A program made the translations under genes and the position numbers. Below, one piece after another: positions 6,038-51,861 of a stretch of 64,000 nt of DNA. The stretch spans positions 1,280,001 through 1,344,000 of the forward strand of contig CAWEPZ010000011.1 in assembly GCA_963811105.1 (NCBI GenBank), written 5' to 3'. The notes under the pieces are model-generated. The model made no database searches. It saw nothing but the letters and a program-made list of their open reading frames with translations, and was not told where the DNA came from. The first letter of the stretch is position 1. Each line of letters begins with the position of its first letter. The stretch comes from Candidatus Bathyarchaeota archaeon (GTDB taxonomy: Archaea; Thermoproteota; Bathyarchaeia; Bathyarchaeales; Bathycorpusculaceae).

Positions 6038-6466
6038 ATGCTTAGGGTAAATGTAGTAATAACCAACATATCAGCCGAACGCTTCTGGGACGTAAGAAAA
6101 CCGATTCCGCCCATTCAGATAAACACTAACATTAATGTTGTGGGTATGGAGAAGAAGCAGGATGAATCTTTGGAAGTTCCTTTTGTTTTGTCAATTGGGT
6201 TTAATCCATCTATCGCTCAAATGAACCTAAAAGGAATGGCTTACGTTAACGGCGAGCGAAACGAAGTTGATAAAGCGCTCAAAGACTACGAACAGAAGAA
6301 GCCGCCGCCACAAATAGTTATTCAATCAATATCAAATGTGGTCTTCATTGAAGCAGTACTAATATCTAGAATACTTAATATTCCACCGCCGATTCCGCTA
6401 CCGCAGATTCCTGAAACAGGCAAACAGCCAAGTTCCAAGCCTGAAGGAAGAGACTACTCCGCGTAG
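6038..6466 (+). CDS. Conserved archaeal hypothetical protein
   Basis: 142-aa ORF continuing the operon, with C-terminal LNIPPPIPLP. Confidence 0.75.
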   Translation: MLRVNVVITNISAERFWDVRKPIPPIQINTNINVVGMEKKQDESLEVPFVLSIGFNPSIAQMNLKGMAYVNGERNEVDKALKDYEQKKPPPQIVIQSISNVVFIEAVLISRILNIPPPIPLPQIPETGKQPSSKPEGRDYSA

Positions 6467-6580
6467 GAATGGCTGACTTGGTCGTTAGTGAGCTTAATTT
6501 TTGAATCCCCAATTCCATTGTTCACGTTTGGAGTACTAAAAATCCATCGTAGCGAAATCATAAAATCACATTGAATGTGT

Positions 6581-6640
6581 TAGACTTTTTTAGACCTTTT
6601 CAGTCTTCTCCAGACCTTTCCAGACGTTTCTAGACCTTTT
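6581..6640. repeat. Six tandem degenerate 10-mers, consensus YAGACCTTTY
   Basis: TAGACTTTTT TAGACCTTTT CAGTCTTCTC CAGACCTTTC CAGACGTTTC TAGACCTTTT. Confidence 0.8.
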
Positions 6641-6756
6641 AGGACTCAACCTACAACTGAATCAAGTTTTGAATCAAAAAAGCAACTCAAATTAAACTGA
6701 ACTAAAAATGAAAAAAAAGACTGTTGTCTGTTCTTCTTGAGACTGAAAATACACTC

Positions 6757-9864: not shown

Positions 9865-10655
9865 TATTCAGTTTCTCCTTTGCTGTATAGTTTACCTAAG
9901 GATTCAATTGCTCCATTTGTCCAAAGTGTTAAACGTCCTGGATGAGTCCCTGGCGCTAACATTTCAGTGTTAAGGTTAGTGACCGTAGTGACTTCAACTC
10001 CTGGAACGTTGCTTGCAGCATTGGCTAGACTTTTACTCTCAACTACAACAATTAGTGGTCCAACAGCTTGCTTCATTTTTCTGCCTCGATGCTTGCCTTT
10101 GCCCGCACGGACATTTCGGCTATCTCGCACTCGGGTAATATCTTGTATGACACCTAAGCGTGTAAAAGCTTCCTCAACTTCTTTAGCCTTGGTTAAACCC
10201 TCTATCGCATTGTCAATTATCAACGGTATCTGAAGAACATCAGCAATTCTGTGACCACGCGAAGCTACTGTATCTTTCTGTGCAGTAGCTGCAATCGCTG
10301 AAAATAACGCCAATTTAGCTTCTTTCTTTGGGATGCTTCTGAGAATTTTCTTTTCGGCTCTTGGCGGATGAGGCTGTCTTCCCTTAACTGTGCTTGGTGC
10401 AAAAGCTGCTCGACCGCTGCCGCCTTTTATGCGGGGAACTCTTGCTATCGCCATGCCTGTTCCACGTGATTCTGCGGTTGTTCTTTTTCCAGCCATGGGG
10501 TCTCTTCCTTGCGGTTGAATTCTACTGGATTGGATGGCTAAGACTGCACGCTTTATGACGTCTGGTCTTAGCGGTGTGGAGAACACGCGGGGAAGATTGA
10601 TTTTTCCTGTTGGTTCTCCTTGTAAATCGAAAATTTCTGCTGTTTTTGATGCCAT
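9864..10655 (-). CDS. rpl4: 50S ribosomal protein L4
   Basis: RPDVIKRAV, RAGKGK, LAPGTHPGRLTLWT. Confidence 0.97.
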   Translation of the reverse strand: MASKTAEIFDLQGEPTGKINLPRVFSTPLRPDVIKRAVLAIQSSRIQPQGRDPMAGKRTTAESRGTGMAIARVPRIKGGSGRAAFAPSTVKGRQPHPPRAEKKILRSIPKKEAKLALFSAIAATAQKDTVASRGHRIADVLQIPLIIDNAIEGLTKAKEVEEAFTRLGVIQDITRVRDSRNVRAGKGKHRGRKMKQAVGPLIVVVESKSLANAASNVPGVEVTTVTNLNTEMLAPGTHPGRLTLWTNGAIESLGKLYSKGETE

Positions 10656-10666
10656 GGCTATTCAAC

Positions 10667-11680
10667 CTATTTTCCTTGTGGAGATTCTAGCGACACATAA
10701 GTAACTTGTGGCGCTGCCTCTGGGATTTCCGTTGGTGGACGTGCAGGAACACGCAAACGAATTTGGCGTTTTTCTGTTCCTGGAATACTGCCTTCCATCA
10801 GTATATATGGGCCTTTTACTTCGCCATATCGGATGTATCCGCCTTTAACGGTCACTTCTTTGCCGTTTTTACCGATTTTTAGTATGCGTTTATTGAATTC
10901 TATGCGTTGGTGATAACCCATTTGTCCAGCTCTTGGGATAGAGTACATGAGGTGGTGCGGGTTCCATGGTCCCAAGGTGGCGATCCCTCGTTTTGTTTTT
11001 CTTCCCTTATGCTGTAGGCAGGTTACTCCCCAACGTTTAACTGGACCTTGGAAACCTTTGCCCACCGTAATTCCTCCTATGTCAATGTATTGGCCATCTT
11101 TGAAGACTTCTTCAGGCGTCACGGTTTTTCCTAAAAGTTGTTTAGCATATTCGAATTGCTGCACTATTGTTCCGCCGCCTAGCTGGATTTCGCATGCTTC
11201 AGGCTTCTTCTTTGAAAGACTGGTTTGCGATGGTTGGGTGGCGGTGATAACTCGAACTACATTTGTTTGTTCGAGGTTTTGCTGCAATTTTTCAAGCATG
11301 GCTTCAGTGTTAAAGGCATCGGGCAAAACCAGAAGTCGACCAAGTATGGCTGGTGGATCTTTCATCCATGCTTCTGATATGTCTTTAAGCCCATATGGCG
11401 TTTTAGTGTATGTTCTAATGCCACAAACAATGATAGGTGGCGTTTCTAGTATAGTTGCTGCTCGCATTACTTCTTTACCAAAATTAGGTGAACGTCTACG
11501 GTCTTCGATTGTAAACACATAGGTCATTCCTGCTTTGTACGCTGAAAAACCTAAAAGCTTTGGAGAATCTGACTTGATTTCTGGCCAATATCGGATTCGG
11601 GCTGTTGGTTTTTTAGCGCGATGCCTAGGTAAGTAGGCTAATGAACCATGTTTTGGAGCATGAGTTTTACGATGTCCCAT
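10667..11680 (-). CDS. rpl3: 50S ribosomal protein L3
   Basis: HGSLAYLPR, YKAGMT, GKGFQGPVKRWG, RAGQMGYHQR. Confidence 0.97.
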   Translation of the reverse strand: MGHRKTHAPKHGSLAYLPRHRAKKPTARIRYWPEIKSDSPKLLGFSAYKAGMTYVFTIEDRRRSPNFGKEVMRAATILETPPIIVCGIRTYTKTPYGLKDISEAWMKDPPAILGRLLVLPDAFNTEAMLEKLQQNLEQTNVVRVITATQPSQTSLSKKKPEACEIQLGGGTIVQQFEYAKQLLGKTVTPEEVFKDGQYIDIGGITVGKGFQGPVKRWGVTCLQHKGRKTKRGIATLGPWNPHHLMYSIPRAGQMGYHQRIEFNKRILKIGKNGKEVTVKGGYIRYGEVKGPYILMEGSIPGTEKRQIRLRVPARPPTEIPEAAPQVTYVSLESPQGK

Positions 11681-12050
11681 TGTACTTCAGCTTCGCGCCT
11701 TTAGCAAATATAAAAAGGAGTTATAAACGTTACCATCAGAAATGAGAAAGCGAGTGCCATTGCTATCTGAATGATGTTTGAGCCTTTATCTATTCAGGTT
11801 AAACCAATATCTTGTGTGCCCTTATGCTTTGCGGTCGAAATTTTTAAGATTAGAATTATGGATGTAAAAGTTGCGACTTTCCTTTGAAATTTTTTTTCCA
11901 GATGCTCACTATTACTTTTGATTAGTCAATTTTTGGAGCCTAACTTAATTATCTTAATTTGTATTGGGCTAATGACACTGCAGTCCAATATCGCCTGTTC
12001 TCTTTGGCTGGAAATCTTTTTTACTCTGCTAAGGCAATGGTTCTATTCAA

Positions 12051-12174
12051 GCCGGGGTGGCGGAGTGGTTATCGCGCCAGCCTCGAGAATTGTAAAAAAG
12101 AGGGCTAAGACCGAAAGGCAAGATAGCTGGTGGGCTTAGTGCTCGCAGGGGTTCGAATCCCTTCCCCGGCGCCA
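12051..12174 (+). tRNA. tRNA-Ser(CGA) with 37-nt intron at 37/38 (12088-12124) and encoded CCA
   Basis: Acceptor GCCGGGG/CCCCGGC, G discriminator, anticodon stem CCAGC/GCTGG with loop CT-CGA-G^A, long variable arm, GGTTCGAATCC T-arm. Confidence 0.9.
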
Positions 12175-12401
12175 TTTTACCATTTAGAGCCAGGATGAAC
12201 TTGTTATACCAAAATAACCTATATGCTGCCTTATTTACTTATTGCCTTAACACTTTCAATGGCACTCGCGCTATCTGAATTCCCTTCAAATAAGCAAATT
12301 TTATATAAAGGCACAGTCTAAAAAGGAAGATAGATAAACCCCGAAAATCGGGTAGAAAAAAATTTTTCTAAACAAAGTTGTATCCTATTGAAGGTTAAGC
12401 C

Positions 12402-12836
12402 ATGATCTCGGACATTTCCAAAGGAACAGGAACAAAACTCTCCAGAAACGCCATTATACTTGCTATAATGATGATTGCGAACGTCGTGATAATCATCCTC
12501 TTAACTCCAATCGGCTTTGAGACCCGCCCGATATCCTCCTTGAAGACGCTCGGCTACATCGCGATTACTACCATTTTTGTCGGTCTCGCACTGGATCTGA
12601 CGTCAATCGTCCTCCTTCTCTTCAAGAGAGTTAGAGTCAGGTTGGCTTCGAGTCTGACGATCATCAGCTCGGTCCTCTTCTTCCTGATCATTTCGGTAGA
12701 TCGAACCGGTTCTTTCTTCTCGGTACCAACCCCTCCTGCAATTAACACCCTCGAATACCTCTTCACTGCCATACTAATCATAACTGTCTTCATAGCGTCA
12801 TTGGTTTACAGATGGAGTAAGACCTCTTCAAGCTAA
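12402..12836 (+). CDS. Hypothetical membrane protein (~4 TM)
   Basis: 144-aa ORF with four hydrophobic segments. Confidence 0.7.
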   Translation: MISDISKGTGTKLSRNAIILAIMMIANVVIIILLTPIGFETRPISSLKTLGYIAITTIFVGLALDLTSIVLLLFKRVRVRLASSLTIISSVLFFLIISVDRTGSFFSVPTPPAINTLEYLFTAILIITVFIASLVYRWSKTSSS

Positions 12837-12925
12837 TGACTTCAGTCGAACTCCAAACACAGAACACAGACAGGCCAGCATTTCGACAAATCGGACGGAA
12901 CGCTTTCTTGGATAGTCCTTGAACG

Positions 12926-13078
12926 CTCGATAGCCTCAACTTAGAGAAGCTCGGATTCAAGCATTCAGTACTCGCAGACACAGGCAGACCGTCTTATCAT
13001 CCCTCAGACCTTCTCAAGCTCTACGTTTACGGATACCTCAACCAGGTAAGATCAAGCCGGAAACTGAGAAAGAATTGA
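12926..13078 (+). pseudogene. IS1182-family transposase N-terminal fragment
   Basis: LDSLNLEKLGF...TGRPSYHPSDLLKLYVYGYLNQVRSSRKL resembles the DUF772 region; no start codon, ends next to the nikR stop. Confidence 0.8.
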
Positions 13079-13079
13079 T

Positions 13080-13499
13080 CTAAATTATTTCTGATTCATC
13101 TGTTGTCATAACAGAAAATTTAATTTGTTTGACTGGTTTGTTGGCCTTCAGCCCATCAATCAATTCCTTTAATCGGCTGGTCGGGCCTTTAATTACCATA
13201 ACCTCAAGACAACTAGTATCAGTCAGATGAGAATGAAGATAAGCCGTAATCATATCGCTGAATTCGTGTTGAAGTCTAAACAGTTCCTCGTTCTTTTCTT
13301 CTTTATTATAAAGAACCGAGATAGTGGCGATTACATTGCCTTTTTGTTCATCGAGCTTTTTGTATTCGGTTAAGTAACTTCGGAGCGCTTGTCTGAGGAC
13401 TTCGGATCTAGTTGCAGATTTTTGCTCTCCTAGCACTGCATCTAATTCTTCAAGCAACTCCGTAGGCAATGAAAGACTGATAATGCTCATTTTTGTCAC
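13080..13499 (-). CDS. nikR: NikR-family metal-responsive regulator (RHH + ACT)
   Basis: IISLSLP...RSEVLRQALR; metal ligands retained in LQHEF...HSHL...SCLEV. Confidence 0.88.
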   Translation of the reverse strand: MTKMSIISLSLPTELLEELDAVLGEQKSATRSEVLRQALRSYLTEYKKLDEQKGNVIATISVLYNKEEKNEELFRLQHEFSDMITAYLHSHLTDTSCLEVMVIKGPTSRLKELIDGLKANKPVKQIKFSVMTTDESEII

Positions 13500-13625
13500 C
13501 TTTCATTATGTTTTATTGTTCCAGTTTAATAAATTGCTCAGCTAAGATGCGTTTATGTCTCGAGGTATTCACTGGTAATTATTATCAGAGGGCTGTTAAA
13601 TCTCAGTTCCTCAGAAAAAACGCTT

Positions 13626-13657
13626 AGTTATTAAAAAAATGGCAAAACTTAATAACT
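13626..13657. promoter_or_regulatory. Putative NikR operator
   Basis: Perfect inverted repeat AGTTATTAA-N14-TTAATAACT, i.e. TTATTA-N16-TAATAA, the half-site spacing of the E. coli NikR operator; ends 37 bp upstream of the ABC operon. Confidence 0.7.
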
Positions 13658-13694
13658 TCTCAAGGCTATGGGCTTTTAGGAAGGAAGTGTTTTC

Positions 13695-14633
13695 ATGAGG
13701 AAAAGAACTTACGTAATAGTCGTAGTTTTGGTAGCAATAATCCTCGCAGGAACTGCTTTAACGTTATATTTTTCAAATAGTACAACGCCCGGCACAAGTT
13801 CAAAATTAAAAGTTGTTGCAACATTTTATCCATTGTATGATTTTGCACAAAATGTAGGGGGCAACAGAACTGACGTCTCAATCCTTGTTCCTGAAACTGT
13901 TGATGTGCATGCTTTTGAACCAACGCCATCTTCAATAGCAGAGGTCTCAAGTGCAGACGTGTTAATTTACGACGGAGCTGGACTAGAACCATGGATTCAA
14001 GACGTAATTAGTGCAGCTGGAAACACAAAACTTATCCAAGTAGACTCAAGCCAAGGAATCAACCTCCTTCCAGTACCATCACAATTTCAAAGAGGTAACC
14101 AAACAATTGACCCTCACATCTGGCTTGATCCCTTAAACGCAAAACAACAAGTAAACAATATTCTTCGAGGATTAATCAAGGCTGACCCTGCTGACAGCCA
14201 GTATTTCACCCAAAATGCACAAGCTTATGACGCTAAATTCGACAACTTGAACTCTTTAGCAATAAACGCCACTACAGACACAGCAACAAAATACTTTGTA
14301 ACCTTCCATGAAGCCTTCGCCTACTTCGCACATCAATATAACGTTACACAGCTTGCGATTTCAGGCCCATTCGAGGAAGAACCAACACCCACTGATATCC
14401 AGAACGTAATTAATGCAATTAACCAATATCACCTAAGATATGTAGGCTATGAATCGCTTGAAAACCAAGCAATATCCCAATCTATCAGCAGCCAAACAAA
14501 CGCGACTCTCATCAACATGAACCCCATCGAAGGGCTGACAACACAAGAAAAAGATAGAGGAGACAACTACATAACTCTCATGCAACAGAACATAAATAAT
14601 ATTCATTTGGCGTTGACTAATGTCGGAACCTAA
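13695..14633 (+). CDS. Metal ABC transporter substrate-binding protein (ZnuA/TroA family)
   Basis: VVATFYPLY, DVHAFEP, DPHIWLDP, TFHEAFAYF; N-terminal anchor. Confidence 0.93.
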   Translation: MRKRTYVIVVVLVAIILAGTALTLYFSNSTTPGTSSKLKVVATFYPLYDFAQNVGGNRTDVSILVPETVDVHAFEPTPSSIAEVSSADVLIYDGAGLEPWIQDVISAAGNTKLIQVDSSQGINLLPVPSQFQRGNQTIDPHIWLDPLNAKQQVNNILRGLIKADPADSQYFTQNAQAYDAKFDNLNSLAINATTDTATKYFVTFHEAFAYFAHQYNVTQLAISGPFEEEPTPTDIQNVINAINQYHLRYVGYESLENQAISQSISSQTNATLINMNPIEGLTTQEKDRGDNYITLMQQNINNIHLALTNVGT

Positions 14634-15381
14634 ACCAATCGTCGAAATACGCGATCTAAGCGTCAAATATCCAAACGGAGTTATGGCTCTCGAAGGCATA
14701 AACTTAGACGTAAATCAGAAAGACCTGATTGCGCTCATAGGACCTAATGGCGCTGGAAAATCAACACTCCTAAAAGTCATTTTGGGATTAACAAAAGCTA
14801 CAAGCGGCTCAATCAAACTTTTCGGGAGCCCGGACTTAGGTAAAAATCTAAAATATGTCGGTTATGTGCCGCAAAGTGCGCAAGCAAGAGACCCAAACTT
14901 GCCCTTTAGTGTTTATGAGACAGTTATGCTTGGAAGAACTCCAGTTGCAGGGTTATTTCATGGAATGGGCGATAAAGACAGGCAAAAGGTTGAGGAAACG
15001 CTCAAACTCTTTGGAATATATGAGCTTAAAGATAGAAAAATTGGTCAACTCTCAGGTGGTCAATCACAACGTGTTTTCCTGGCAAAAGCGATGGTTGCGG
15101 AGCCCAAATTGCTTTTGCTTGATGAGCCAACTAGCGGGGTAGATACGTCTTCGAAAAAAGAGTTCTATAATATTCTGGATCGCTTAAACAAGGAGCGTGG
15201 GATAACTGTTATTTTATCTTCTCATGACATAGGTGTAATAACAAAGATAGCAAACAGAGTTCTTTGTGTAAACAAGTCACAGTTCTTCTGTGGAGAAAAC
15301 GAAGACTTCTCTGCAAACGTTGAGATTCATAAAATGTACGATCACCCTGTGGAGATTATGGATCATCATGACCATCCTTGA
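14620..15381 (+). CDS. Metal ABC transporter ATPase (ZnuC-like)
   Basis: GPNGAGKS, LSGGQ, LLLDEP, SSHD, His-rich C-terminus. Confidence 0.93.
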   Translation: MSEPKPIVEIRDLSVKYPNGVMALEGINLDVNQKDLIALIGPNGAGKSTLLKVILGLTKATSGSIKLFGSPDLGKNLKYVGYVPQSAQARDPNLPFSVYETVMLGRTPVAGLFHGMGDKDRQKVEETLKLFGIYELKDRKIGQLSGGQSQRVFLAKAMVAEPKLLLLDEPTSGVDTSSKKEFYNILDRLNKERGITVILSSHDIGVITKIANRVLCVNKSQFFCGENEDFSANVEIHKMYDHPVEIMDHHDHP

Positions 15382-16207
15382 TGTCCTTTCTTTGCTTCAA
15401 GCACCTTTTATACAACGTGCATTCATCATAAGTATAATTATTGCTATTCTCAGCTCTATCCTAAGCATTTTTATTGTTTTAAAGAAAATCTCATTGATAG
15501 GTGATGGGCTGTCTCACACAGCCTTTGGAGGATTAGCCCTTGGATACTACCTCAGTGTTTTTCCTATTTGGATAGCGGGAATTGTTGTGGTGTTAGGGTC
15601 TATTGGGATCAATAAGGCTTTACGTTCGACAAAGATTTCAGGTGACGCTGCAGTTGCTGTTTTTCTTCAACTTGGTCTTGCAGGAGGCATAACCTTGTTG
15701 AGCCTTGCAAGGGGCTTTGGCGTTAACCTTGAGAGCCTGCTTTTTGGAAGCATCCTGATAGTAAATATGGACCAAATTATAACGGCGGCGGTTGTTGCAG
15801 CAATAGCCCTTGGCATAATTTTTGTATTCTTCAAAGAAATGGTTTACATTACTTTTGATGAAACTCAGGCCCGAGCTGCAGGAATCAAGACATGGGTTTT
15901 TGACTATCTTCTGAGCATTCTCGCCGGTGTGGTTGTAATTATTGCTATACCGATAGTTGGTGTACTCTTAATTTCAGCATTACTTGTGTTACCTGCTTTA
16001 ATAAGCACTCAAATCACAAAATCTTTTAAGCAAACTGTCATCCTTGCACCAATAATTGGCCTTATCACGGTGATATTCGGCATATTGGCATCCGTAATTT
16101 TAGACGCAGCTCCTGGAGGAACAATTGTCCTTGTTGGCTTAGCGATTCTTGCAATAGTTTTTGTGGCAAAAAGAATCCAGAGTGCTATGAATAATCCAGA
16201 AAAATGA
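15368..16207 (+). CDS. Metal ABC transporter permease (ZnuB-like)
   Basis: GDGLSHTAFGG, LFGSIL, TFDETQARAAG; start at the ATG overlapping the ATPase end. Confidence 0.92.
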   Translation: MTILDVLSLLQAPFIQRAFIISIIIAILSSILSIFIVLKKISLIGDGLSHTAFGGLALGYYLSVFPIWIAGIVVVLGSIGINKALRSTKISGDAAVAVFLQLGLAGGITLLSLARGFGVNLESLLFGSILIVNMDQIITAAVVAAIALGIIFVFFKEMVYITFDETQARAAGIKTWVFDYLLSILAGVVVIIAIPIVGVLLISALLVLPALISTQITKSFKQTVILAPIIGLITVIFGILASVILDAAPGGTIVLVGLAILAIVFVAKRIQSAMNNPEK

Positions 16208-16311
16208 GGCTGAATGTAGTAGAAGAATCTTAAAAATTAACAAACACTTAGAAAAAAAGTATGGAGAACACACTGCTGAAAAAAAGCGGTTTCGAACCTT
16301 AGACAGTGTGA

Positions 16312-16450
16312 GTCTCTACCGGGCTCATCCCCAACCAAGCATTTTCCTTATTTTCAAAGCGGCTTACTAGTAAATTGGGGTTCGAATCTCTTCCCCGGCG
16401 CCATTTTTTAGAGCTGATTTCAAGGCTATTTTTTAGAATCAAGTATAATT
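16312..16450 (+). repeat. 139-bp att-junction repeat, copy 1 (65-bp arm + 27-bp tRNA core + 47-bp arm)
   Basis: Aligns ungapped with 18518-18656, 8 mismatches by manual count. Confidence 0.92.
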
Positions 16451-16601
16451 TAACCCTATTTAGCATTTCTTTCAAAACAATCCAAATTTGAGAAGGATTT
16501 CTTAATAGTAAAAATTCGCGAATTCGCAACTTAGTTCAATTTAAGGCAAGATCGTTCGATTAGAATTTAGTCGGTGAAGCCGCTGGGTCCCAGACCCAAA
16601 T

Positions 16602-16731
16602 GAGAGTGTATAAAAACTCAAATTAAGTTTTTGAAATTGCGTCTATATCTGAAAACACACCATGAAGCTCCCACCAAATCACAATAAACTTAGTAATTTT
16701 CTGAAGTTGAAATCAGTTTTTACACAGTCTC
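16602..16731. mobile_element. 130-bp MITE-like element with IS1182-like terminal inverted repeats
   Basis: Left end GAGAGTGTATAAAAACT; right end reverse complement GAGACTGTGTAAAAACT (15/17); no coding capacity. Confidence 0.65.
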
Positions 16732-16909
16732 AAAAGGGTTCGAAACCTTTCAAGATTAGTTGGCACGCTGTTATATTTTTTGCCCTGCTATTTTCTTGAT
16801 TAAAATTTAATAAAACCCAAACCAAAATTTTTCATGTAATTCTGTATATATATATTGGATAAGGGTATTATTTAGTTAAATAAGGTTTATTTTTTATAAG
16901 GTTAAAGTT

Positions 16910-18461
16910 ATGCCCGTTAACCCAAATAATTCTAAAGTTTCAAAAGAGCCCACCAAAGCAGCCGTTGTGCATAAGAGCTTGCTTGGAATTAAGAAAAAGT
17001 ATGATGCTCTTTTTAACCAAAACATTAACGGATTGGCTTACTGCAAAACAATATTCGATGACAGCAATCAGCCCATTGATTATGTTTTTCTTGAAGTTAA
17101 CAATGCATTTGAGAAGCAAACGGGTCTAAAAAAAGAAAACGTTGTGGGTAAACACGCAACCCAAATAATTCCAAACATCAAAAATTCAGCTTTCGATTTT
17201 ATAAACATCTACGGTAAAGTTGTGCTTACTGGAGAACCAGTTGAAACCTACCAAGAAGACCTAAAACGTTGGCACTCTGTCTATGTTGTCAGCCCAAAAA
17301 AGACCTTTTTCCTCTCTCTGTTTACAGATATAACAAACCGCAAGCAAGCTGAAGAAACATTAGCTTATCAGGCTGATTTATTGTCAAAGGTTCATGAAGC
17401 GCTTGTTGGCATTGATGCAAACTACATAATTACGTATTGGAATAGTGCTGCTGAAGAAATATTTGGCTGGACAAAAGAAGAAGTACTTGGAAAAAACTCT
17501 GAAGAATTACTGCAAACAAAAATTGAAGGCTCCTCACGCGATGAAGGAATAACTAAGTTGCTGGCGCCGGGTCATTATGAAGGCGAAGTGCAGTATTTAC
17601 GCAAGGATGGTACATACTTTTTTGCTGATGTTAATGCCGTCACCATAAAAGACGCTAATGGGAAACTGCAGGGCATTATGACTGTTGCTCGAGACATTAC
17701 TGAACGTAAGCAGATGGAAGCTAAACTTGAAAGATATAGCAGGCACTTGGAGGATTTGGTTGAGGAGCGAACTAAACAGCTCAGTGATGGTGAACGGTTA
17801 GCTGCTATCGGTCAAACTGCGGGCATGGTTGGACATGACATACGCAATCCTTTGCAGGCTATCACCAGCGATGTCTACTTGGCTAAAACAGAGTTGGCTT
17901 CGACATCTGAAAGTGAAGAGAAAAAAGAACGCATTGGAAAGCTTGGATGAGGTTGAAAAGAACGTAGAGTACATCAACAAGATTGTGGCGGACCTACAAG
18001 ACTATGCGAGATCCATCAAGCCAATGGTACAGGAAACTGACCTGGAGGCGATCATTGAAAATTTGCTGCTAAAGAATGACGCCCCCAAGAACATCAAAGT
18101 CTCTTCCAGCGTAGAGAATGACTCAAAGAAAATCGTGGCTGACCCTGATTTGTTAAAACGGATTCTGTACAACTTGATGACGAATGCTGTGCAGGCTATG
18201 CCGGAAGGCGGAAAGCTAAGCGTCCACGCTTACAGAGACGGCGGCGACTATGTCATAACGGTGAAGGATACAGGTATGGGCATACCAAAAGAAGCGAAAA
18301 GCAAGTTGTTCACGCCGCTGTTCACCACTAAAGCTAAGGGTCAAGGCCTCGGCTTAGCTGTCGTTAAACGGATGACTGAAGCGATAGGCGGCACAGTATC
18401 ATTTGAGAGTCAAGAAGGCAAAGGAACAACTTTCACAGTACGTTTGCCGACTTTGAATTGA
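16910..18461 (+). pseudogene. PAS-PAS histidine kinase, frameshifted in the A6 run at 17921-17926
   Basis: PAS domains and H-box GHDIRNPL in ORF 16910-17950; N, G1, F and G2 boxes (NAVQA, DTGMG, FTPLFTTK, GQGLGL) in the +1 frame to 18461. Confidence 0.85.
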
Positions 18462-18517
18462 CATTCAAACTTAGAAAACTGTTTTTGCTTAGTAGACTCG
18501 AACTCGAAACGGTTAGG

Positions 18518-18656
18518 GTCTCTACCGGGCTCATCCCCAACCAAGTATTTTCCTTATTTTCAAAGCGGCTTACTAGTAAATTGGGGCTCGAATCCCTTCC
18601 CCGGCGCCATTTTTTAGAGCTAATTTAAAGGTTATTTTATATAATCAAGTATAATT
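18518..18656 (+). repeat. 139-bp att-junction repeat, copy 2
   Basis: Near-identical to 16312-16450; tRNA core at 18583-18609. Confidence 0.92.
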
Positions 18657-18770
18657 CTGCCGCCAAGTCTATCTGTGAGAGTGAAGGGAGTAAGAGGTCC
18701 TGTGGCGGATGGAGAACTGCCAAAATGTAAAGAATTTGGAATAAGGATAGCAAATCAACTAAATCCCTAA
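18657..18770 (+). pseudogene. Flavodoxin-like C-terminal remnant
   Basis: LPPSLSVRVKGVRGPVADGELPKCKEFGIRIANQLNP*; begins exactly where the repeat arm ends. Confidence 0.55.
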
Positions 18771-18824
18771 ATCCAAATCATAGAAAAAGAGATAATTTAG
18801 GACTTATTAGAATTGACGGTCTCT

Positions 18825-18911
18825 ATGATTCTAGACGTTGTTTGTGGTATGGAAATTGATCAGAAAAACTCAAAACGGGAAACAGAGCATAAAAATAAAG
18901 TTATCGAATGA
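18825..18911 (+). pseudogene. Truncated YHS/TRASH-domain protein
   Basis: MILDVVCGMEIDQKNSKRETEHKNKVIE*; DxVCGM motif present, YYFCS half missing. Confidence 0.6.
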
Positions 18912-19069
18912 ATCGCCCGATCAGTACGGCTGTTTTTTTGTTTGGATTTCTCCTAATTCTTTTTTTAATATCCTGTACATTTTTTAAGCATATTCTAAAT
19001 TATTAGGTTAAGACAAAAAAAATTGAAAAATGGAAAGAAAATGGCGATTTCTTAACTTTAGTAGTCGAG

Positions 19070-20695
19070 TTATTTCATTATTGCTTTGAGGTCTTCGTCT
19101 GCTGTTTTAATCGGCATGATGTTGAACTTCTCAACCAGTACCTTTAGTATGTTTGGCGTTATGAATGCGGGCAAGCTTGGTCCTAACCGAATGTCTTTGA
19201 TGCCGAGATACAGCAAGGACAGCAAAATAGCAACCGCCTTCTGTTCATACCACGAGATCACCAGTGAGAGAGGCAAATCGTTGACACCAACTCCGAAAGC
19301 GTCTGCCAAAGCCTGCGCAATTTTTACGGCTGAGTACGCGTCATTGCATTGTCCGACGTCGAGTAACCGTGGGATGTCATCGATTGTGCCTAAGTCTTTG
19401 TCGAAAAAACGGAATTTGCCGCATGCCAACGTTAGGATGATGGTGTTGCTTGGTGCTTTCTCCACGAATTCTGTGAAGTAGCTGCGTCCAGGTTTTGCAC
19501 CGTCACATCCACCCACTAAAAGGAAGCGTTTAATATGCCCGCTTTTGACGGATTCAATGACTTTGCCTGCTACACTTAAAACAGCGTTTCTACCGAATCC
19601 GACCAGAACGGTTTTGCCTTCTACGTCGTCTGTGAAGCCTGGCATCGCTAATGCTTTGTTAATGACTGGTGAGAAGTCTTTGCCTTCGATGTGTGGTACG
19701 CCTGGGTAACCGACCGGTCCAGTTGTGAAGATGTTGCCTTTGTAGCTTTCGACGGGTCGTTGGATGCAGTTGGTTGTCATGAGTATGGCGCCTGGGAACT
19801 GGGCGAATTCTTTCTGTTGGTTTTGCCATGCGGTGCCGTAATGACCGTAGAAATTAGAGTACTTCTTGAGTCCGGGGTAACCATGGGTAGGAAGCATTTC
19901 GCCGTGAGTGTAGATGGTGATGCCTTTGCCCTGCGTTTGCTTTAGAATCTCTTCTAAGTCGATTAGGTCGTGTCCTGAAACAACGATAGCTTTGCCCTTT
20001 TTGTGTCCCAACGGCACTTTTGTGGGAACTGGATGTCCATAGGTTTCCGTGTTGCCTGCATCGAGAAGTTCCATGGCACGGATGTTGATTTCACCGCACT
20101 TCAAAACTAAACCCACAAAATCGTTTACTCCAAGCGATTTGTCAAATGGAGCCACTAATCCTTGATGGATGAAATCGAAGACTTTCGGGTCTTTTTTGCC
20201 TAAAAGATACGCATGGTAAGAGTAAGCTGCAACTCCTTTTAACCCATAAGTTAGAAGCCACTGCAACGAATGAAGGTCCGGGTCAATTGTCGTGTCGGAG
20301 TTTATTCCGTGTTGTTTGCCCTGTGCAACTAAGTCTGCCATGGTGTTTTCCAACGGCAAATAAGTTGCTTTGACGCCTAATTTTTTATGCAGTTGGTCGT
20401 GTAGTTCAGCGGTTTTTTTGATGTAGGCAATGATTGCTTCTGGATCAAAATTCACGTTAGTTAAGGTTACGAAGAGTGCTTCAGCGGTGAAGACGTTGAT
20501 TTTTTCGTCTTTGAAGCCAGCTTCGTCTGCTTTTATAACAAGTTGGCTTAGTTCCCTTAGCTTGTAAACTAAGAGGTCTTGAAGGTTCGCAACGTTGGCT
20601 GTTTTGCCGCAGACCCCAGCGATTGTGCAGCCTGTGCCTTTGGCTGTTTGTTCGCATTGGTAACAGAACATTTGATTCTGACTCATACTTTTCAC
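19070..20695 (-). CDS. hcp: Hybrid cluster protein (hydroxylamine reductase)
   Basis: MFCYQCEQT...CT..GVCGK, SGHDL, HGEMLP, TTNC, GGCDG, LACGK, GQCND, WYEQKA. Confidence 0.97.
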   Translation of the reverse strand: MKSMSQNQMFCYQCEQTAKGTGCTIAGVCGKTANVANLQDLLVYKLRELSQLVIKADEAGFKDEKINVFTAEALFVTLTNVNFDPEAIIAYIKKTAELHDQLHKKLGVKATYLPLENTMADLVAQGKQHGINSDTTIDPDLHSLQWLLTYGLKGVAAYSYHAYLLGKKDPKVFDFIHQGLVAPFDKSLGVNDFVGLVLKCGEINIRAMELLDAGNTETYGHPVPTKVPLGHKKGKAIVVSGHDLIDLEEILKQTQGKGITIYTHGEMLPTHGYPGLKKYSNFYGHYGTAWQNQQKEFAQFPGAILMTTNCIQRPVESYKGNIFTTGPVGYPGVPHIEGKDFSPVINKALAMPGFTDDVEGKTVLVGFGRNAVLSVAGKVIESVKSGHIKRFLLVGGCDGAKPGRSYFTEFVEKAPSNTIILTLACGKFRFFDKDLGTIDDIPRLLDVGQCNDAYSAVKIAQALADAFGVGVNDLPLSLVISWYEQKAVAILLSLLYLGIKDIRLGPSLPAFITPNILKVLVEKFNIMPIKTADEDLKAIMK

Positions 20696-20780
20696 CTTGG
20701 TTAACTATAATGGCTTCAATGCAGATAGGGTTTACCCCGAACATGCGAGGGATTACAGAAAAACATTCACAGATGCCGGG

Positions 20781-21407
20781 TTAGATTTCCCGTTTAAAAT
20801 AATGCTCCAGCAACCTGCGCATACCCCGCCGCATAGTCTCAGAAAGCGTCGAGGTGCTAATTCTAAGCTTCGTCGCAAGCTCCTCCATACCAATTTGCCG
20901 CGGATAATCAAAAAACCCACTCTTCAGAGCTAACCAAAAAATCCTCTCCTGGTTCTCGGTTAAGACACCGATTTGCTGCTCAAACTTGCCGATTTTACGC
21001 ACGTTAACTTTGTGCCCAGCTTTTTCTAAGTCATCTATTATGCCTTTGTAGGCTTCAAAAGTCGGCACCATGAAGCTGTAGGTTATGATGTTCTCGTGCA
21101 TGCTTTTGCCCGACACCAAAAAAGCGTCGTGTGCCAAAATTGTGTTGCAGACTTCGCAGCCTTCGCTCTCCAGCCAAACCGCTGATTTGCCTTCCACATG
21201 GCCTTTAGCTGCCAGTTCTTTGGGGACTTTGTGGGCTTGGTCTTCGCCGACATCCATTAGGTGCCGCACGCAGCCGCCGCTTGAGCTGCGCACGTCAACA
21301 ACTTTTAGGTGGCTAAACCCCAAGGAAGCAAGTTTCTTTACCATTTTACACTGCTTATTTTCAACTTCAATTACAACATGATAAGGTTCACGCCAAGCAT
21401 CGACCAA
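20781..21407 (-). CDS. Bat-type HTH_10 transcriptional regulator with Cys-containing sensor domain
   Basis: LTENQERIFWLALKSGFFDYPRQIGMEELA...STLSETMRRG; CxxC in the N-terminal domain. Confidence 0.85.
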   Translation of the reverse strand: MVDAWREPYHVVIEVENKQCKMVKKLASLGFSHLKVVDVRSSSGGCVRHLMDVGEDQAHKVPKELAAKGHVEGKSAVWLESEGCEVCNTILAHDAFLVSGKSMHENIITYSFMVPTFEAYKGIIDDLEKAGHKVNVRKIGKFEQQIGVLTENQERIFWLALKSGFFDYPRQIGMEELATKLRISTSTLSETMRRGMRRLLEHYFKREI

Positions 21408-21871
21408 ACCAATCAGCCTCGTCTGTCTAAACTCAAAAACAAGCAGTTAAACATACGTCTATTCGACCAACCATAAATTGGTTTTCTGATAGTTTTTTTA
21501 CAAAGAAAAACTGGAGCTTGAACTGCTACTTAATCCAAAAGGTAATTGGTAATTAGATTAACATATTGTCTATGGGTTGGTAGATCTATAGTGTAATTTT
21601 GTGACGAGTTTAACCCGAAACTTTTGCATCAACTCTTAGGAGAATACTGGTAATGATGATTAAAGCTGTTGAACGTGAGACTTTCTTAATTAGCGTCTTC
21701 TGAACTTCAGATGTGAATTTTGCCGGTTCTGCACTTAAACTGCGTAAGTCTCTATGGTTCTGTATTCAAAGGGTTCAAGACCTATATACCCTCAAGCGAT
21801 TAAAGCAAACTCACAGAAGAAACCCCCTGTAAGAAGAGGAGTCGGTATGTTTACTTCAAAATAATCCCGGG

Positions 21872-21912
21872 TTTACTAGTAAATTGGGGTTCGAATCCCT
21901 TCCCCGGCGCCA
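21872..21912 (+). repeat. Fourth tRNA-Ser core preceded by the palindrome TTTACTAGTAAA
   Basis: TTTACTAGTAAATT followed by the exact 27-bp core at 21886-21912. Confidence 0.92.
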
Positions 21913-21947
21913 TCAACTTACTTTTGGACAAATCCCCGGCTAGCGGG

Positions 21948-22740
21948 TTATTTGGGCTTTTTGAAGATTTTGCTCTTGTCGTAATCGCAAACGTATTGGA
22001 ATCCTGCTTCTAGCAGTTTGCGTGCCTCTTCAAGTGTTCAAGCGACTTTGACAACATAATCCTGATCGCCGAAGTCTATCAATTGGGTATATCGCATCGT
22101 ATTCTTGATGTTCTTGTGACCAAGCGTTCGCATAAAGTGAAGGATATCTTTAGTTCTGTGGTTCTCCATAGTGGCTTTCCAGTGTCGCATAGTATGAAAA
22201 GTTATTCTTAACAGTCGCGGGTTTTTACTTTTATCGGCAGCTATTTTTCTGTTGCGCTCGAAAAGTCGAGCTGTTGTCGCTAGTTTGCTCCTCCAAAGAC
22301 GAACTTGTTTCTCTTTGGCAGGTCTTCTATTCGTTCCAGTAGTGTGAGGTTCTTAGGATTCTGGGATTGCTATGTTTTTCGGGTGTTATCCTTACGGTTC
22401 TTTTTTCAGCATCGATGTCTGTCCATTCTATTTGCCAGCCTTCGCCTCGCCTTGCACCTGTTTCTTTCAGCAGCTGGGTAGATGTGCCTGTCTATTTTCC
22501 TAATGAGGCGATTAAGTAGTCGATTTCACTTTCTGTCGGTATGAAAGATAGCTTTTCGACGGCTTTGATTCTGGGTGGATTCCATGTTCCGCCTAGTGAA
22601 TTGAGGGTTCTTAGGAATCTTCTTAGGCACTGAGCGTATTGAACCAGACTTTCTACGGGTGTGAAGAATAAGACGAAGTCAGAGTTTAGAAAGCGGATGA
22701 TGATTTCGATGTTAACCTTGGAACAGTGAAATTTTCGCAT
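21948..22740 (-). pseudogene. Tyrosine recombinase/integrase, disrupted
   Basis: Manual translation: KETGARRGE (catalytic R), TFHTMRHWKAT (HxxR), LGHKNIKNTMRY (H, Y); in-frame stops and frameshifts; its stop lies 35 bp from the att core. Confidence 0.88.
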
Positions 22741-22820
22741 CCATCACAGGCCTAACCGGAATTATTATCGGGCTATTTGTAGGGAAAAACCTTGATTCTT
22801 ACCAGGTGGAACCAAGCTTA

Positions 22821-23138
22821 ATGGCGAGGGGCAAACCTTGTACAGTTGAAGATGAAAGGCAACTTCGACAATTCTTAACAGAAAAAAAGTCTAGGCGTTC
22901 TATTGCAAAGATTCTGGGCAAATCCCTGACTTCTGTGCAGATGAAAACATCGCGCTTAGGCTTAGTAGTTGTTGATGGCGTGTTTTTTTCACTCCCATCA
23001 ACAACTACCTTTGATAAGTTAATTTTGCCAATTGAGTTACCTTCAATTGAGCAAGAACTAAAGATCTTGGTTGCAGCTTTGAAATATCTTGAAACGCCGA
23101 ATTTAGATAAAACTGATGTTTTGCGTTTACGCGGCATA
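22821..23138 (+). pseudogene. HTH/Myb-like protein N-terminal part, fused in frame to the DUF3800 remnant
   Basis: MARGKPCTVEDERQLRQF...SIAKILGKSLTSVQMKTSRLGL; divergent from the integrase. Confidence 0.55.
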
Positions 23139-23766
23139 GACCTCGGTTTTTCTGAAAAAGCAACAAAATATTTTATAGTAGCTTACGTAGAATGCGAGAC
23201 ACCGGTAAGACTCCGAACAGAGCTAAGACGCCTTCTAAAACGTCTACACCAAAAAGAAAGATACTCTAAGAGCCGAAACGAGCTCAAATTCTCAAGAATG
23301 GATGAATATTGCAGAAAAAGCGCCCTAACAAAAAATAATCGAGTGTGACGCTTCACTAGGCGCCGTCGTTTTAGAGAAGGCACGTGTAAAAGACGAACTA
23401 AGGAAAGATCCGCCAATTCTCTACAACTGGTTTCTAGTCCACAACATAATGCTCTCGCTTATTCCCCAAATCACCGCTGGAAACAAAATACAGATAAACT
23501 TCGACAAAAGCCTCCCAATGTAGAGAATAAACCAATTCAATTCATACGTAACAAACAAGGCCAGCTACCTCTTATATGAAACAGGAAACAGCCCCCCACC
23601 CAACTGTATTTTATTAAATCACGTAGCTTCTGAAAAAAAAGAATTCTGCCTGCAAGCAGCCGACGCAATAGCAGGAGCATACTTCCAAAAATATGAAAAA
23701 CAAAACGATGAATATGTCAAAATCATTGAGCATAAAGTTGGTTACTTCAAATATCTCTGGAAATAA
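23139..23766 (+). pseudogene. DUF3800-family protein, disrupted
   Basis: DLGFSEKATKYFIVA (preceding DESG lost), ELKFS, FDKS, C-terminal LQAADAIAGA; several frameshifts and stops. Confidence 0.7.
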
Positions 23767-23773
23767 CAGAAAC

Positions 23774-23843
23774 GCGACCCCTATCCTAATACTCCAATCC
23801 CACAAACGCGCAGGCATCATTGCCTCGGATAGGACTTACTCGC
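23774..23843 (+). ncRNA. Candidate structured RNA downstream of the DUF3800 gene
   Basis: Nested pairings GCGA/TCGC and CCTATCC/GGATAGG, plus hairpin AGGCA-TCAT-TGCCT. Confidence 0.5.
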
Positions 23844-24104
23844 AATAAAACAATATTACCTTAAAATTATTTAAGCCTTATTCTTCATGAATCCACTTCC
23901 CCTTCTTCATTAATCTTAATCCTTTGGTAACCCCTAAGGTAACCCCTTCAAAGCTGAGGCTGTAAAATTCTGCAAACAAAAGCACAGATGCCACGCGAAC
24001 CCGCGTTTGAACCCTCGGATATAGAATAGTGAAATTACTTTGAGGGTTCTTAAGCTTCAATGCCTTTACTGTCTATAATATGAAATAGTAAAAAGAGGAA
24101 TAAT

Positions 24105-24353
24105 ATGAGTAAATCAAGGCAAGGTGGCAGTTACGAGGGAAAACGTGGTCATGGCAAGGGTTTTAAACGTTGTCCAGTCGAGTTGGGAGAAGAATTAGAA
24201 GCAGAAATTACGGAATTGAGCTCAAAAGGGGAAGGCATAGCTAGAAATCAAGGCTTTCCAATTTATGTTGCCGACGCAAAACCTGGAGACCGAGTAAAAA
24301 TAAAGATAACCAGAATAACCGACAAAGCAGCAAACGCACAAGTAGTCAAATAG
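24105..24353 (+). CDS. Stand-alone TRAM-domain protein (RNA chaperone-like)
   Basis: PVELGEELEAEI...KGEGIARNQGFPIYVADAKPGDRVKIKI. Confidence 0.9.
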   Translation: MSKSRQGGSYEGKRGHGKGFKRCPVELGEELEAEITELSSKGEGIARNQGFPIYVADAKPGDRVKIKITRITDKAANAQVVK

Positions 24354-24651
24354 ATCGCGCTCAGCAAAAACGCGAACTAACATTTTTGAAAAATCAACGT
24401 GTACAGTTTAAAACTAAATAGTTAGTTAGAAATCGCGTTGCAATTTCTAAACGGGTTTAAATCCCTGTTTGACCATATCTACATTACAGAGCGAGCGGTT
24501 TTAGAACAGTAGAAAATGTTTAGTCTCCAGTCTCTTACTGTTCAAATCATCTTATTCAACGTGACTGAGATTTGGGCATTTCCTGCGAATCACAAAAACG
24601 CTTACTATGCTAAAAAAGACTATTAATGAATAAAATTATGGAGAGAATAAC

Positions 24652-26292
24652 TTGGCATATTTAACTCAAACCCAAAGTGGTCAACCTGTACTCATTCTGA
24701 AGGAGGGGACCTCTCGAAGCAGAGGGAAAGAAGCCCAGAGAAACAATATAATGGCCGCACGAGTAATTGGCGAAGTACTCAAAACAACCTTAGGCCCAAA
24801 GGGCATGGACAAAATGCTCATCGACAGCCTAGGCGACATAACAATAACAAACGACGGCGCTGCAATCCTAAAAGAAATAGACGTCGAGCACCCAGCAGCA
24901 AAAATGATGGTTGAAATCGCCAAGACACAAGACGACATGGTGGGCGACGGAACAACAACCGCCGTGGTGTTGGCCAGTGAACTTCTCAAGAAAGCTGAAG
25001 AATTATTGGATCAGAACATTCACCCAATCATACTTGTCAGTGGATACCGCAAGGCATCTCAAAAAGCAATCGAAATCATAGAGAAAATCGCGGTGCCCAT
25101 CGACGTGGAAGATCAAAAAACAATGATGAAAGTCGCCTTGACGTCCATGGGAAGTAAAGCCGTGGGTGGTGCTAAAGAGCACTTTGCAGAAATCGCCATA
25201 GAAGCTGTAAAGCAGATATCCGAGAAACGTGGAGACAAGACAATAGCAGACATAGATAACATACAGCTGGTGAAGAAGACGGGAAAAAGCCTCATCGAGA
25301 CGCAACTCGTCAGAGGCATAATCGTTGACAAAGAAGTCGTCCATCCAGCGATGCCCCGAAAAAAAGAAAACGCGAAAATCGCACTTTTAGATTCTGCATT
25401 GGAAATTGAGAAAACCGAAATGAGCGCCGAAATACGCATACGCGATCCGAACCAAATGAAAGCTTTCCTCGACCAAGAGGACAGCATGCTCAAAGACATG
25501 GTGACCAAGATCAAAGCTTCAGGCGCCGCTGTTGTGTTCTGCCAGAAAGGATTAGACGACATGGTTCAACACTACCTATCTAAAGAAGGAATAATGGCTG
25601 CCAGACGTCTCAAGGAGTCAGACATGGAGAAACTCGCAAGAGCAACAGGCGGAAGAGTTACCTCCAATTTGAACGATTTGAAGACGACAGACTTAGGTTT
25701 TGCCGGCTTGGTCGAAGAGCGCAAGATCGGCGACGACAAAATGATCTTCGTTGAAAAATGCAAAGATCCTCACTCAGTAGCCATACTGATACGAGCAGGG
25801 CTTGAACGAATGGTGGATGAAGCTGAAAGAGCAATTATCGACGCGCTTTCAGTTGTTTCAGATGTTGTTGAAAACAGCAAAATCGTCGCAGGCGGAGGAG
25901 CCGCAGAAATCGAAGTTGCAAAAGAACTGCGCAAATACGCCAACAAAGTCGGCGGAAGAGAACAATTAGCCGTTGAAGCATTCGCAGATGCAATGGAAGT
26001 AATCCCACGTACACTCGCAGAAAACGCTGGGCTAGATCCAATAGATGTACTAGCGGAACTAAGATCAGCACACGACAAAGAAACCGGCAAATACATGGGC
26101 ATAAACGTTTTCACGGGAAAAGTGCAGAACAGCATCGACAACGGCGTAATCGAACCAATCGCCGTTAAAGAACAAGCAATCAAATCCGCAGCAGAATCAG
26201 CAGCCATGATACTACGCATTGACGATGTCATAACATCCAAAGCGCCAAAAGGCGGACCAGCCGGTCGGAATGCCCGGCGGTCCCGAAGGTGA
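24652..26292 (+). CDS. ths: Thermosome (group II chaperonin) subunit; tail apparently frameshifted
   Basis: [35 protein letters not shown]; TTG start. Confidence 0.95.
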
Positions 26293-51860: not shown

Positions 51861-51861
51861 G

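Follow-up and report, generated by a model that had tools for sequence, protein, structure and literature searches.

Integrase-less units with conserved arms behind a tRNA-Ser(CGA) gene of a Bathyarchaeia genome: a probable case of serial site-specific accretion

How does a series of DNA segments without any recognisable integrase come to lie end to end behind a tRNA gene, each bounded by a copy of the 3' end of that gene? The question is raised by a locus in the genome of a Candidatus Bathyarchaeota archaeon from soil (assembly GCA_963811105.1), within the 64,000-nucleotide stretch analysed here and referred to throughout as the window (contig CAWEPZ010000011.1, positions 1,280,001 to 1,344,000 of the forward strand; coordinates below are those of the window). 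A tRNA-Ser(CGA) gene is followed in the window by three further copies of its last 27 bp, and the last of these by a broken tyrosine integrase gene. A sequence-only reading of this DNA had proposed an analogue of the integron, in which small integrase-less cassettes are stacked at a tRNA. The explanation that we regard as reasonably probable is the serial, site-specific accretion of non-autonomous units at tRNA-Ser(CGA), recombined by a co-resident integrase. In what follows, genomes are cited by handles beginning with G and individual contigs by handles beginning with C.

The tRNA-Ser(CGA) gene (12051-12174, + strand) is of archaeal type and contains a 37-nt intron and an encoded CCA end. Default ARAGORN returned no tRNA call for this intron-bearing gene, but ARAGORN allowing introns returned tRNA-Ser(cga) at 12051-12174, and the Rfam tRNA model RF00005 matches 12051-12171 with 47.6 bits. 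The last 27 bp (12148-12174) constitute core copy 1, on the attL side, with the sequence GGGGTTCGAATCCCTTCCCCGGCGCCA. All four copies are on the + strand, starting at 12148 (0 mismatches), 16377 (1), 18583 (1) and 21886 (0), so that the core-to-core spacings are 4229, 2206 and 3303 bp. In dinucleotide-preserving shuffles a 14-mer at up to 2 mismatches is expected to match 0.22 times on average; and a 27-nt pattern comprising the arm described below and half of the core, allowed up to 3 mismatches, was found three times, against 0.00 in shuffles of the same kind. A search for a fifth core or arm, allowing up to 7 mismatches, to the right of the integrase and in the rest of the window gave nothing.

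Each of the three non-tRNA copies of the core is directly preceded by the same 13-nt sequence, TTACTAGTAAATT, and each of the first three cores is followed by a T-run and TAGAGC, the sequences there being TTTTACCATTTAGAGCC, TTTTTTAGAGCT and TTTTTTAGAGCT in order. Junctions 2 (16292-16450, +) and 3 (18498-18656, +) have in common a 159-nt repeat of 90% identity, which extends 85 nt upstream and 47 nt downstream of the core. Junction 2 accordingly consists of an 85-nt right arm ending in TTACTAGTAAATT (16364-16376), core copy 2 (16377-16403, one mismatch) and the start of a left arm, and junction 3 of a right arm with TTACTAGTAAATT (18570-18582), core copy 3 (18583-18609, one mismatch) and the start of the next left arm. 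Junction 4 (21873-21912, +) comprises TTACTAGTAAATT and an exact core copy 4 (21886-21912), after which comes a flank of a different type, TCAACTTACTTTTGGACAAA, that leads into the integrase. The cores thus delimit three segments: unit 1, carrying the gene orf144 and a NikR-ZnuABC block; unit 2, carrying a PAS histidine kinase; and unit 3, carrying Hcp with an HTH_10 regulator.

The probable ancestral state of the site was sought in 20 tRNA-Ser(CGA) loci of the same genus. The gene for ribosomal protein L3 is kept just upstream in 14 of them; in the window the neighbouring genes recognised by Pfam are likewise archaeal, with ribosomal proteins L3, L4 and L2 upstream and a thermosome gene downstream, and within 17 kb none of the 20 relative loci has the TRAM or thermosome genes of the window. 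At four loci (G210, G207, G016 and G191) TCAACATACTTTTGGACAAA and an integrase stand immediately behind the core, the integrase sharing 68-83% identity with the C-terminal fragment in the window; three further loci keep the TCAACATACTTTTGGACAAA flank and show no integrase match. The integrase of G191 is an intact open reading frame (ORF) of 424 amino acids with a PF00589 domain, followed by ORFs of no family. Since an integrase stands directly behind the tRNA in these relatives and three units intervene in the window, the units appear to have been inserted between tRNA and integrase, by repeated insertion at the tRNA-proximal site.

Comparison of occupied with empty sites in different species shows, further, that such integrase-less units have been gained or lost exactly at the tRNA core. 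The orf144 module lies behind tRNA-Ser(CGA) in the window and behind tRNA-Ser(GGA) in G252 and G204; the three modules align from the first base past the CCA, while the tRNA genes upstream differ, and three other species have the orf144 gene but not that left arm. The right end of the unit in G252 and G204 is formed by TTTACTGGTAAAYT followed by a core of the Ser(GGA) type, and in G252 the whole unit is only 0.96 kb long, with a single gene. The tRNA-Ser(GGA) locus of the genome under study matches that of G252 at 84.6% up to the core and at 83.2% over 232 nt from the second core on, and only the core region matches twice, so that the 0.96-kb unit is missing here exactly between the cores. A second case concerns tRNA-Ser(CGA) itself. 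In G260, G274 and G297 this tRNA continues without a break into the 200 nt found after core 2 in the window (16377-16602, 82-89% identity), and relative to these three genomes the window therefore has a 4,229-bp insertion consisting of unit 1 plus one copy of the core. Past the shared 200 nt the window, G260, G274 and G297 all differ in cargo, and the same left arm is found with other cargo in G260, G274, G297 and G284. The NikR-ZnuABC block recurs as the third unit of an array in G222, at 79-96% protein identity.

That three repeats and their contents should have been stacked by an assembler, misled by the 159-nt repeats into chaining unrelated pieces of the bin behind the tRNA, is very improbable. 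The assembly is incomplete, with 15 contigs and an estimated contamination of 4.3%; and the Logan contigs of four metagenome runs that cover window positions 10000-26000 are short, and among the pieces listed none bridges a junction. Nor was a circle or a joint that skips a unit seen among them, the one long 'skip' (21396 to 25863) having one side of just 23 nt. An artefact is nevertheless hard to reconcile with similar arrays in many independent assemblies, including contigs of 1-2.7 Mb, with repeats that are short and only 90-94% alike, or with occupied and empty sites in other species that fit the junctions to the base.

The arms prove to be the common property of a family of units that is widespread in Bathyarchaeia at class II tRNA genes (Ser and Leu). 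The arm joined to a T-arm was found, at up to 3 mismatches, in 16 of 201 genomes of the taxonomic family (the present one included) and in 9 of 70 genera, the reversed pattern giving 0 as a control. At least 116 stretches of the genome_contigs collection match the exact degenerate junction pattern; among the 80 matches listed, 58 come from entries titled Bathyarchaeota or Bathyarchaeia, most of the others are from other archaea, and six are bacterial and chance-like. A scan of viral_contigs with the junction pattern gave two matches, neither with a tRNA-like core, a tRNA or an integrase match, and these were treated as chance. The arm is joined to several cores, those of Ser(CGA), Ser(GGA), Ser(GCT), a further Ser core and Leu, all belonging to class II tRNAs, and the consensus of 120 junctions reads TT-TTACTgGTAAATT-GGGGTTcGAATCCC, followed by a C-rich acceptor strand and a T-run. 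At 12 of the 120 junctions, against 6 in a control window, the arm motif recurs in direct orientation immediately behind the core; this is at best a feature of a subset. Within its 3.49 Mb the genome under study has about ten arm-plus-T-arm sites, and on its contig C1 a core copy with two mismatches is followed by a single gene for an 870-amino-acid surface protein, by TTTACTAGTAAATT and a core, and by an integrase remnant. A dispersed repeat resembling a miniature inverted-repeat transposable element (MITE), a class marked by numerous scattered copies, terminal inverted repeats and target-site duplications, was considered for the arm and rejected: the arm motif alone is no commoner in this genome than its reversed control (145 sites against 195), and the junctions always include a tRNA-like core.

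For 22 of the 127 distinct junctions collected, a copy of the junction's own core lies upstream in direct orientation. The paired units so defined bear directly on whether such segments are the remains of prophage- or plasmid-like elements, each once autonomous, that lost its integrase after integrating in tandem, the arms then being old attL and attR flanks. Integrase loss is the usual account of integrase-less integrated elements in archaea, at least in those passages of PMC8371274 that deal with them, where tandem integration is noted as well; tandem reuse of a site is also known, and according to the relevant part of PMC6563490 arrays arise in this way. Decay is moreover evident at the locus itself, in a fragment of an insertion sequence (IS), the integrase pseudogene and a frameshifted kinase. 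Against this, 21 of the 22 paired units, of 0.67-7.5 kb, have no tblastn match to four integrase queries. On 17 further contigs of the genus tRNA-Ser(CGA) is followed by at least one junction in five cases, with units of 2-21.6 kb, and the sole integrase match there comes after a junction, none falling inside a unit. Units can measure as little as 0.67-1.5 kb, and the orf144 unit of 0.96 kb, which occupies two different tRNA genes, is there or missing exactly at the core. Conservation of the left arms reaches to the very edge of the core, a state not to be expected if an integrase gene beside the core had been deleted independently each time; and the elements at this tRNA that do bear an integrase have other arms. 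Decay of once autonomous elements is therefore unlikely as the general explanation, and there is good support for a family of non-autonomous units that share standard arms. The expectation of the sequence-only reading that these segments belong to such a family has thus stood up to comparison with relatives, where the arms recur with other cargo and in other orders, and descent from a large integrase-bearing element would be indicated for just one of the 22 paired units.

The cargo of the relatives' units is diverse. It includes surface proteins; a cbb3 oxidase operon with a cytochrome c assembly gene; a DUF998 gene alone; methyltransferase and toxin-antitoxin genes; TrmB, VWA and Ig-like proteins; SPFH, PQQ and EamA proteins; and ATP-citrate lyase, isocitrate dehydrogenase (IDH) and aconitase, as well as CDC48 with TBP. 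At one tRNA-Leu gene (L153, positions 299-338 and 2663) the arm and a second core come directly after the CCA, the two cores being only a 15-nt arm apart, in what looks like an 'empty' unit.

In the window, unit 1 is a composite of two fused units. Unit 1a (12175-12925, +) consists of a left arm beginning with TTTTACCATTTAGAGCC and of orf144 (12402-12836), which encodes a 144-amino-acid membrane protein. The cargo of unit 1b (13080-16207, mixed strands), as assigned by Pfam, is NikR (13080-13499, -), ZnuA (13695-14633), an ABC_tran ATPase (14620-15381) and an ABC-3 permease (15290-16207). Between the two lies the N-terminus of a truncated IS transposase (12983-13072, +; DUF772 profile positions 1-30 of 74, E 1.3e-7), which is the mark of the fusion, a junction being missing at this point; loose contig ends occur at 13066 in two metagenome runs. 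Unit 2 (16404-18582, +) comprises a 200-nt left arm (16404-16602), a dispersed repeat (about 16573-16750), the histidine kinase gene (16910-18461) and a right arm. A frameshift near 17921 breaks its kinase, with PAS and HATPase_c domains (Pfam), into two ORFs that overlap. Contigs from three of the four metagenome runs are one base shorter at 17921, which would bring both ORFs into one frame, and the extra base in the window is either a real frameshift or an assembly error. The dispersed repeat of unit 2 is MITE-like and about 130-175 bp long; many genomes of the genus have several copies of it, for example at three to four listed places each in G229, G222, G268, G296 and G304. Unit 3 (18610-21885) has both of its genes on the - strand, Hcp/prismane (19070-20695) and the HTH_10 regulator (20781-21407), set between non-coding arms of about 460 bp, the assignments again being from Pfam. 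Its left arm contains a second short repeat (18655-18893), of about 100-240 nt, that recurs in many genomes of the genus and has one further copy in the present genome (C11:552367-552467, 76%).

Pfam detected no recombinase or replication family in the cargo of any unit, and tblastn with the four integrase queries gave no match within units 2 and 3; for unit 1, whose right junction falls outside the pattern used for the tblastn scan, the absence of an integrase is a Pfam result. On the points of structure, then, the sequence-only reading has been borne out: the four direct copies of the tRNA-Ser 3' end with their spacings, the shared motif before the non-tRNA copies and the T-run with TAGAGC after the first three, the unrelated cargo without integrase or replication genes, and a single, broken tyrosine integrase ending 35 bp beyond the last core were all found as it had described them.

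Where the cargo comes from is a further question. Within the genus these gene blocks, from each of the three units, are common (some part of them is matched in 114 of 120 genomes) and lie mostly without arms. Five Hcp-HTH_10 loci show neither core nor arm within about 5 kb; of six NikR-Znu loci in other species, four have no junctions, and at the remaining two an arm motif lies close by, in one case in the opposite orientation; and a NikR-Znu paralogue on contig C2 of the genome under study is also without junctions. Hcp-HTH_10 is found in at least two chromosomal contexts, and the context of G279 and G286 is contiguous and empty in the present genome (contig C3). Homology to these loci ends at the gene blocks, the arms not being common to them, so that unit 3, for example, matches over 19071-21406 only. 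In each case the cargo is more alike between species than its surroundings: 96% for the PAS kinase against 75-77% for the flanks (G230), 91% for NikR-Znu against 74-79% (G229), and 85% for Hcp-HTH_10 against 77-80% (G279).

Such ordinary origins might also be accommodated without any dedicated mobile class, if pseudo-tRNA 3' halves served as secondary sites and integrase-mediated deletions, inversions and translocations had shuffled the chromosome, leaving the junctions as scars. Cargo that consists of ordinary genes, armless in several chromosomal contexts of sister species, is in keeping with this, as are the roughly ten junction-like sites scattered over the present genome. In G214 (contig C8; L119, L120) two inverted Ser(CGA) cores at 207988 and 247226 are 39 kb apart with the same flank after each, an arrangement that would fit integrase-mediated inversion. 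In addition, blocks which are bounded by junctions in relatives lie downstream of the array here. A block with ATP-citrate lyase, IDH and aconitase, genes of the reductive tricarboxylic acid (rTCA) cycle, stands in G304 between two arm-plus-core junctions about 5 kb from the tRNA, and its counterpart in the window (49644-56416, 78.8%) has no junctions. Likewise, CDC48-TBP is carried by the first junction-bounded unit behind tRNA-Ser(CGA) in G274, and the counterpart in the window (30671-34835) is 93.6% identical and without junctions, with flanks at 76-80%. This copy looks like a transferred extra copy; more distant CDC48-TBP paralogues, at 68% and 70%, are present elsewhere in the genome. The DNA downstream of the array may have been accreted earlier, or may simply be chromosome. 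Scars left by shuffling nevertheless seem a rather unlikely source of the array as a whole: the arm motif and the features of the left arm are conserved across genera and tRNA cores, which points to a selected site; the insertions are small and precise; and the identity of the cargo, well above that of the flanks, argues for transfer between species.

The integrase gene at the far end of the array is a pseudogene (21948-22740, -) with two in-frame stops and at least one frameshift, whose fragments match PF00589 at profile positions 28-71 and 124-168. An in-frame TGA at 22035-22037 (-), within VKVA*TLEEA, corresponds to a tryptophan in the paralogous remnant on contig C1 (VKVAWTLEEA). The gene is the remnant of the integrase-bearing element that adjoins the tRNA in relatives. 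The integrase belongs to the non-partitioning archaeal type, since its ORF does not include the core, which comes 35 bp after the stop codon in the window and about 35 bp after the end of the ORF in G191; an element with an SSV-type (class I) integrase, whose gene is split by integration, was considered and ruled out, as the att core is not inside the integrase ORF. To its right are broken ORFs of no Pfam family (22716-23766, +) and an Rfam match to DUF3800-X RNA (23772-23845, -; 60.9 bits, E 6.9e-11). Assignment of the broken ORFs to DUF3800 was dropped, there being no Pfam match at E up to 0.1, and only the RNA match remains. The stretch 22716-23848 is probably the decayed rest of the integrase element, for which no right-end repeat was found. 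Many paralogous integrases are present in this genome, each adjoining the 3' end of another tRNA. A 37-kb contig (C14 of G000), possibly an integrated or free element, has two apparently intact integrase paralogues (6221-7498 and 12902-14239), one of them adjoining tRNA-Asp.

Several observations weigh against serial accretion by a co-resident integrase. The array is probably frozen in this genome, because the closest integrase subfamily has one copy in the window and one on contig C1 and each of these is a pseudogene; of the four intact-looking paralogues, which show an identity of only 30-39%, three adjoin other tRNAs. The integrase-bearing elements at the Ser(CGA) core have a right arm of another kind, ...GAGAAAC...CTCTTTCWCT, at five junctions (four in relatives and one in the present genome at C1:110606), and their left arm, too, differs from that of the units; if the integrase needs arm sites, it might have no action on these units. 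One of the 22 paired units, at a tRNA-Leu gene, holds an integrase remnant, as would be expected of decayed elements. The same cargo can carry different right arms, as NikR-Znu does in G222 and the window, and orf144 in G252 and G204, from which it follows that cargo and arms are not always inherited together. Some junction-bounded units hold housekeeping-type genes, namely those for ATP-citrate lyase, IDH and aconitase and for CDC48 and TBP; with the counterparts of these here lacking junctions, some 'units' may be plain chromosome between scars. Finally, no excised circle, within-population empty site or recombination product was seen, the contigs of the four metagenome runs all being short.

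With these reservations, the history of the locus under serial accretion may be reconstructed as follows. An integrase-bearing element would first have occupied the site immediately next to the tRNA, a position that it retains in relatives. Four small units, carrying orf144, NikR-ZnuABC, the PAS kinase and Hcp-HTH_10, would then have been inserted serially at core copies on the tRNA-proximal side of the integrase, each with a left arm (a T-run, then a sequence like TTTAGAGC) and a right arm ending in the palindrome-bearing TTTACTAGTAAATT beside a copy of the core; and a later IS-linked deletion would have fused the first two units. The cargo would be drawn from ordinary chromosomal gene blocks of the kind that also occur armless in sister species. 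Mobilisation was likely in trans: the tyrosine integrase of a co-resident element sharing the core would recombine the non-autonomous units, which might move alone as small circles, or joined to the integrase element by accretion-mobilisation as proposed for the cis-mobilisable elements (CIMEs) discussed below.

Something can also be said of the site of exchange. Crossover probably takes place in the 3' part of the core, because the cores at junctions vary in the T-loop and match the local tRNA in the acceptor strand; the last 10 nt are common to Ser(CGA) and Ser(GGA). The palindromic arm takes the position that the variable arm has in a class II tRNA. Left arms, for their part, may be former downstream flanks of tRNA genes, since at least one of them equals the sequence directly 3' of the tRNA in other species, and this would explain how chromosomal blocks turn into units. 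It is tempting to go further and to envisage a dedicated gene-shuffling platform of Bathyarchaeia at class II tRNAs, in which one arm-recognising recombinase, in place of tRNA-specific integrases each confined to their own element, serves all sites and moves any DNA that has a TTTACTAGTAAATT arm and a T-arm/acceptor core, the left arms being ex-tRNA flanks; such a platform is for the present a doubtful proposition.

The comparison with integrons is instructive, and holds in part. In integrons the attC sites are imperfect inverted repeats that fold as hairpins of single-stranded DNA, the integrase gene lies beside attI and encodes an enzyme of the IntI type with a characteristic extra segment, and a promoter reads into mostly promoterless, co-oriented cassettes. 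The present locus resembles this arrangement in having short cargo units between repeated recombination sites, with one tyrosine recombinase at one end. It differs in that there is no attC-like folded site and no arrangement of attI or of the cassette promoter Pc, the site being a tRNA 3' end; six of six junctions folded no better as single strands than their shuffles (z -0.57 to +1.18, 200 shuffles each). Its integrase is tRNA-distal, convergent and borne by an element, lying at the tRNA in relatives, and its cargo is on both strands, with regulators of its own, NikR and HTH_10, and promoter-like sequences. For want of an attC-like fold, and given the mixed orientation, the cargo regulators and the element-borne integrase, the locus is not an integron, and the analogy is structural only. 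The integron analogue of the sequence-only reading can accordingly be retained as a description of structure (a family of units, standard arms, presence or absence at the core, an integrase outside the units), and not as a mechanism, in view of the lack of single-stranded folding, the mixed strands, the cargo's own regulators, and an ordinary tRNA-convergent integrase whose elements at this tRNA carry another right arm.

The nearest analogues would appear to be CIMEs and the islands shaped by tycheposons. CIMEs, known from streptococci, are att-flanked and recombinase-less, lie in tandem with an integrative and conjugative element (ICE) that shares their core, and are proposed to move by means of the neighbour's integrase (accretion-mobilisation). 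The units described here are likewise flanked by direct repeats of the 27-bp core that also adjoins the integrase, and have no recombinase or transfer genes within them (by Pfam, and by tblastn for units 2 and 3). They differ from CIMEs in being archaeal, with no conjugation module anywhere; in having conserved arms of their own, unlike those of the integrase element; and in being stacked three to four deep and occurring at several class II tRNA genes.

In Prochlorococcus, the islands shaped by tycheposons are described in a preprint (bioRxiv 10.1101/2020.12.28.424599) as lying beside tRNAs, with scattered partial tRNAs and with newer insertions pushing older ones outward; they consist mostly of transferred cargo, for example for metal and nutrient uptake, rather than of an integrase-bearing element, and its authors propose that cargo is left behind once the element excises. 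The locus in the window is similarly a tRNA-adjacent island with partial tRNA repeats and transferred cargo. Tycheposons, by that account, differ in encoding integrase and replication genes and in being bacterial, not archaeal, and the passages of the preprint that concern these islands describe no conserved arm motif on the integrase-less blocks there, a point on which the supplements may bear. Among archaeal systems, the elements with class II (pNOB8-type) integrases, to use the class names given in the relevant part of PMC8371274, share the PF00589 domain, an unsplit integrase gene (here in a relative), its convergence on the tRNA and the duplicated tRNA 3' end; the difference is that in the window integrase-less units stand between the integrase element and the tRNA. 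A literature search, covering titles, the openings of abstracts and passages of individual papers, brought up the bacterial analogues and general statements on archaea, with no account of these arms or units in Bathyarchaeia; such an account may nonetheless exist.

Little is known of how genes are exchanged in Bathyarchaeia, an abundant and uncultured group. The units described here offer a concrete and testable route by which adaptive genes could pass between species without phage or plasmid genes, and their 13-nt arm and 27-bp core are defined sequences that can be used in recombination assays and in searches of metagenomes. The cargo extends to metal uptake, nitrosative stress, a sensor kinase, surface proteins and a cbb3 oxidase, and possibly to central metabolism. 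If the gene-shuffling platform envisaged above is real, it would explain the mobility between species of chromosomal blocks, even those with genes of central metabolism and transcription.

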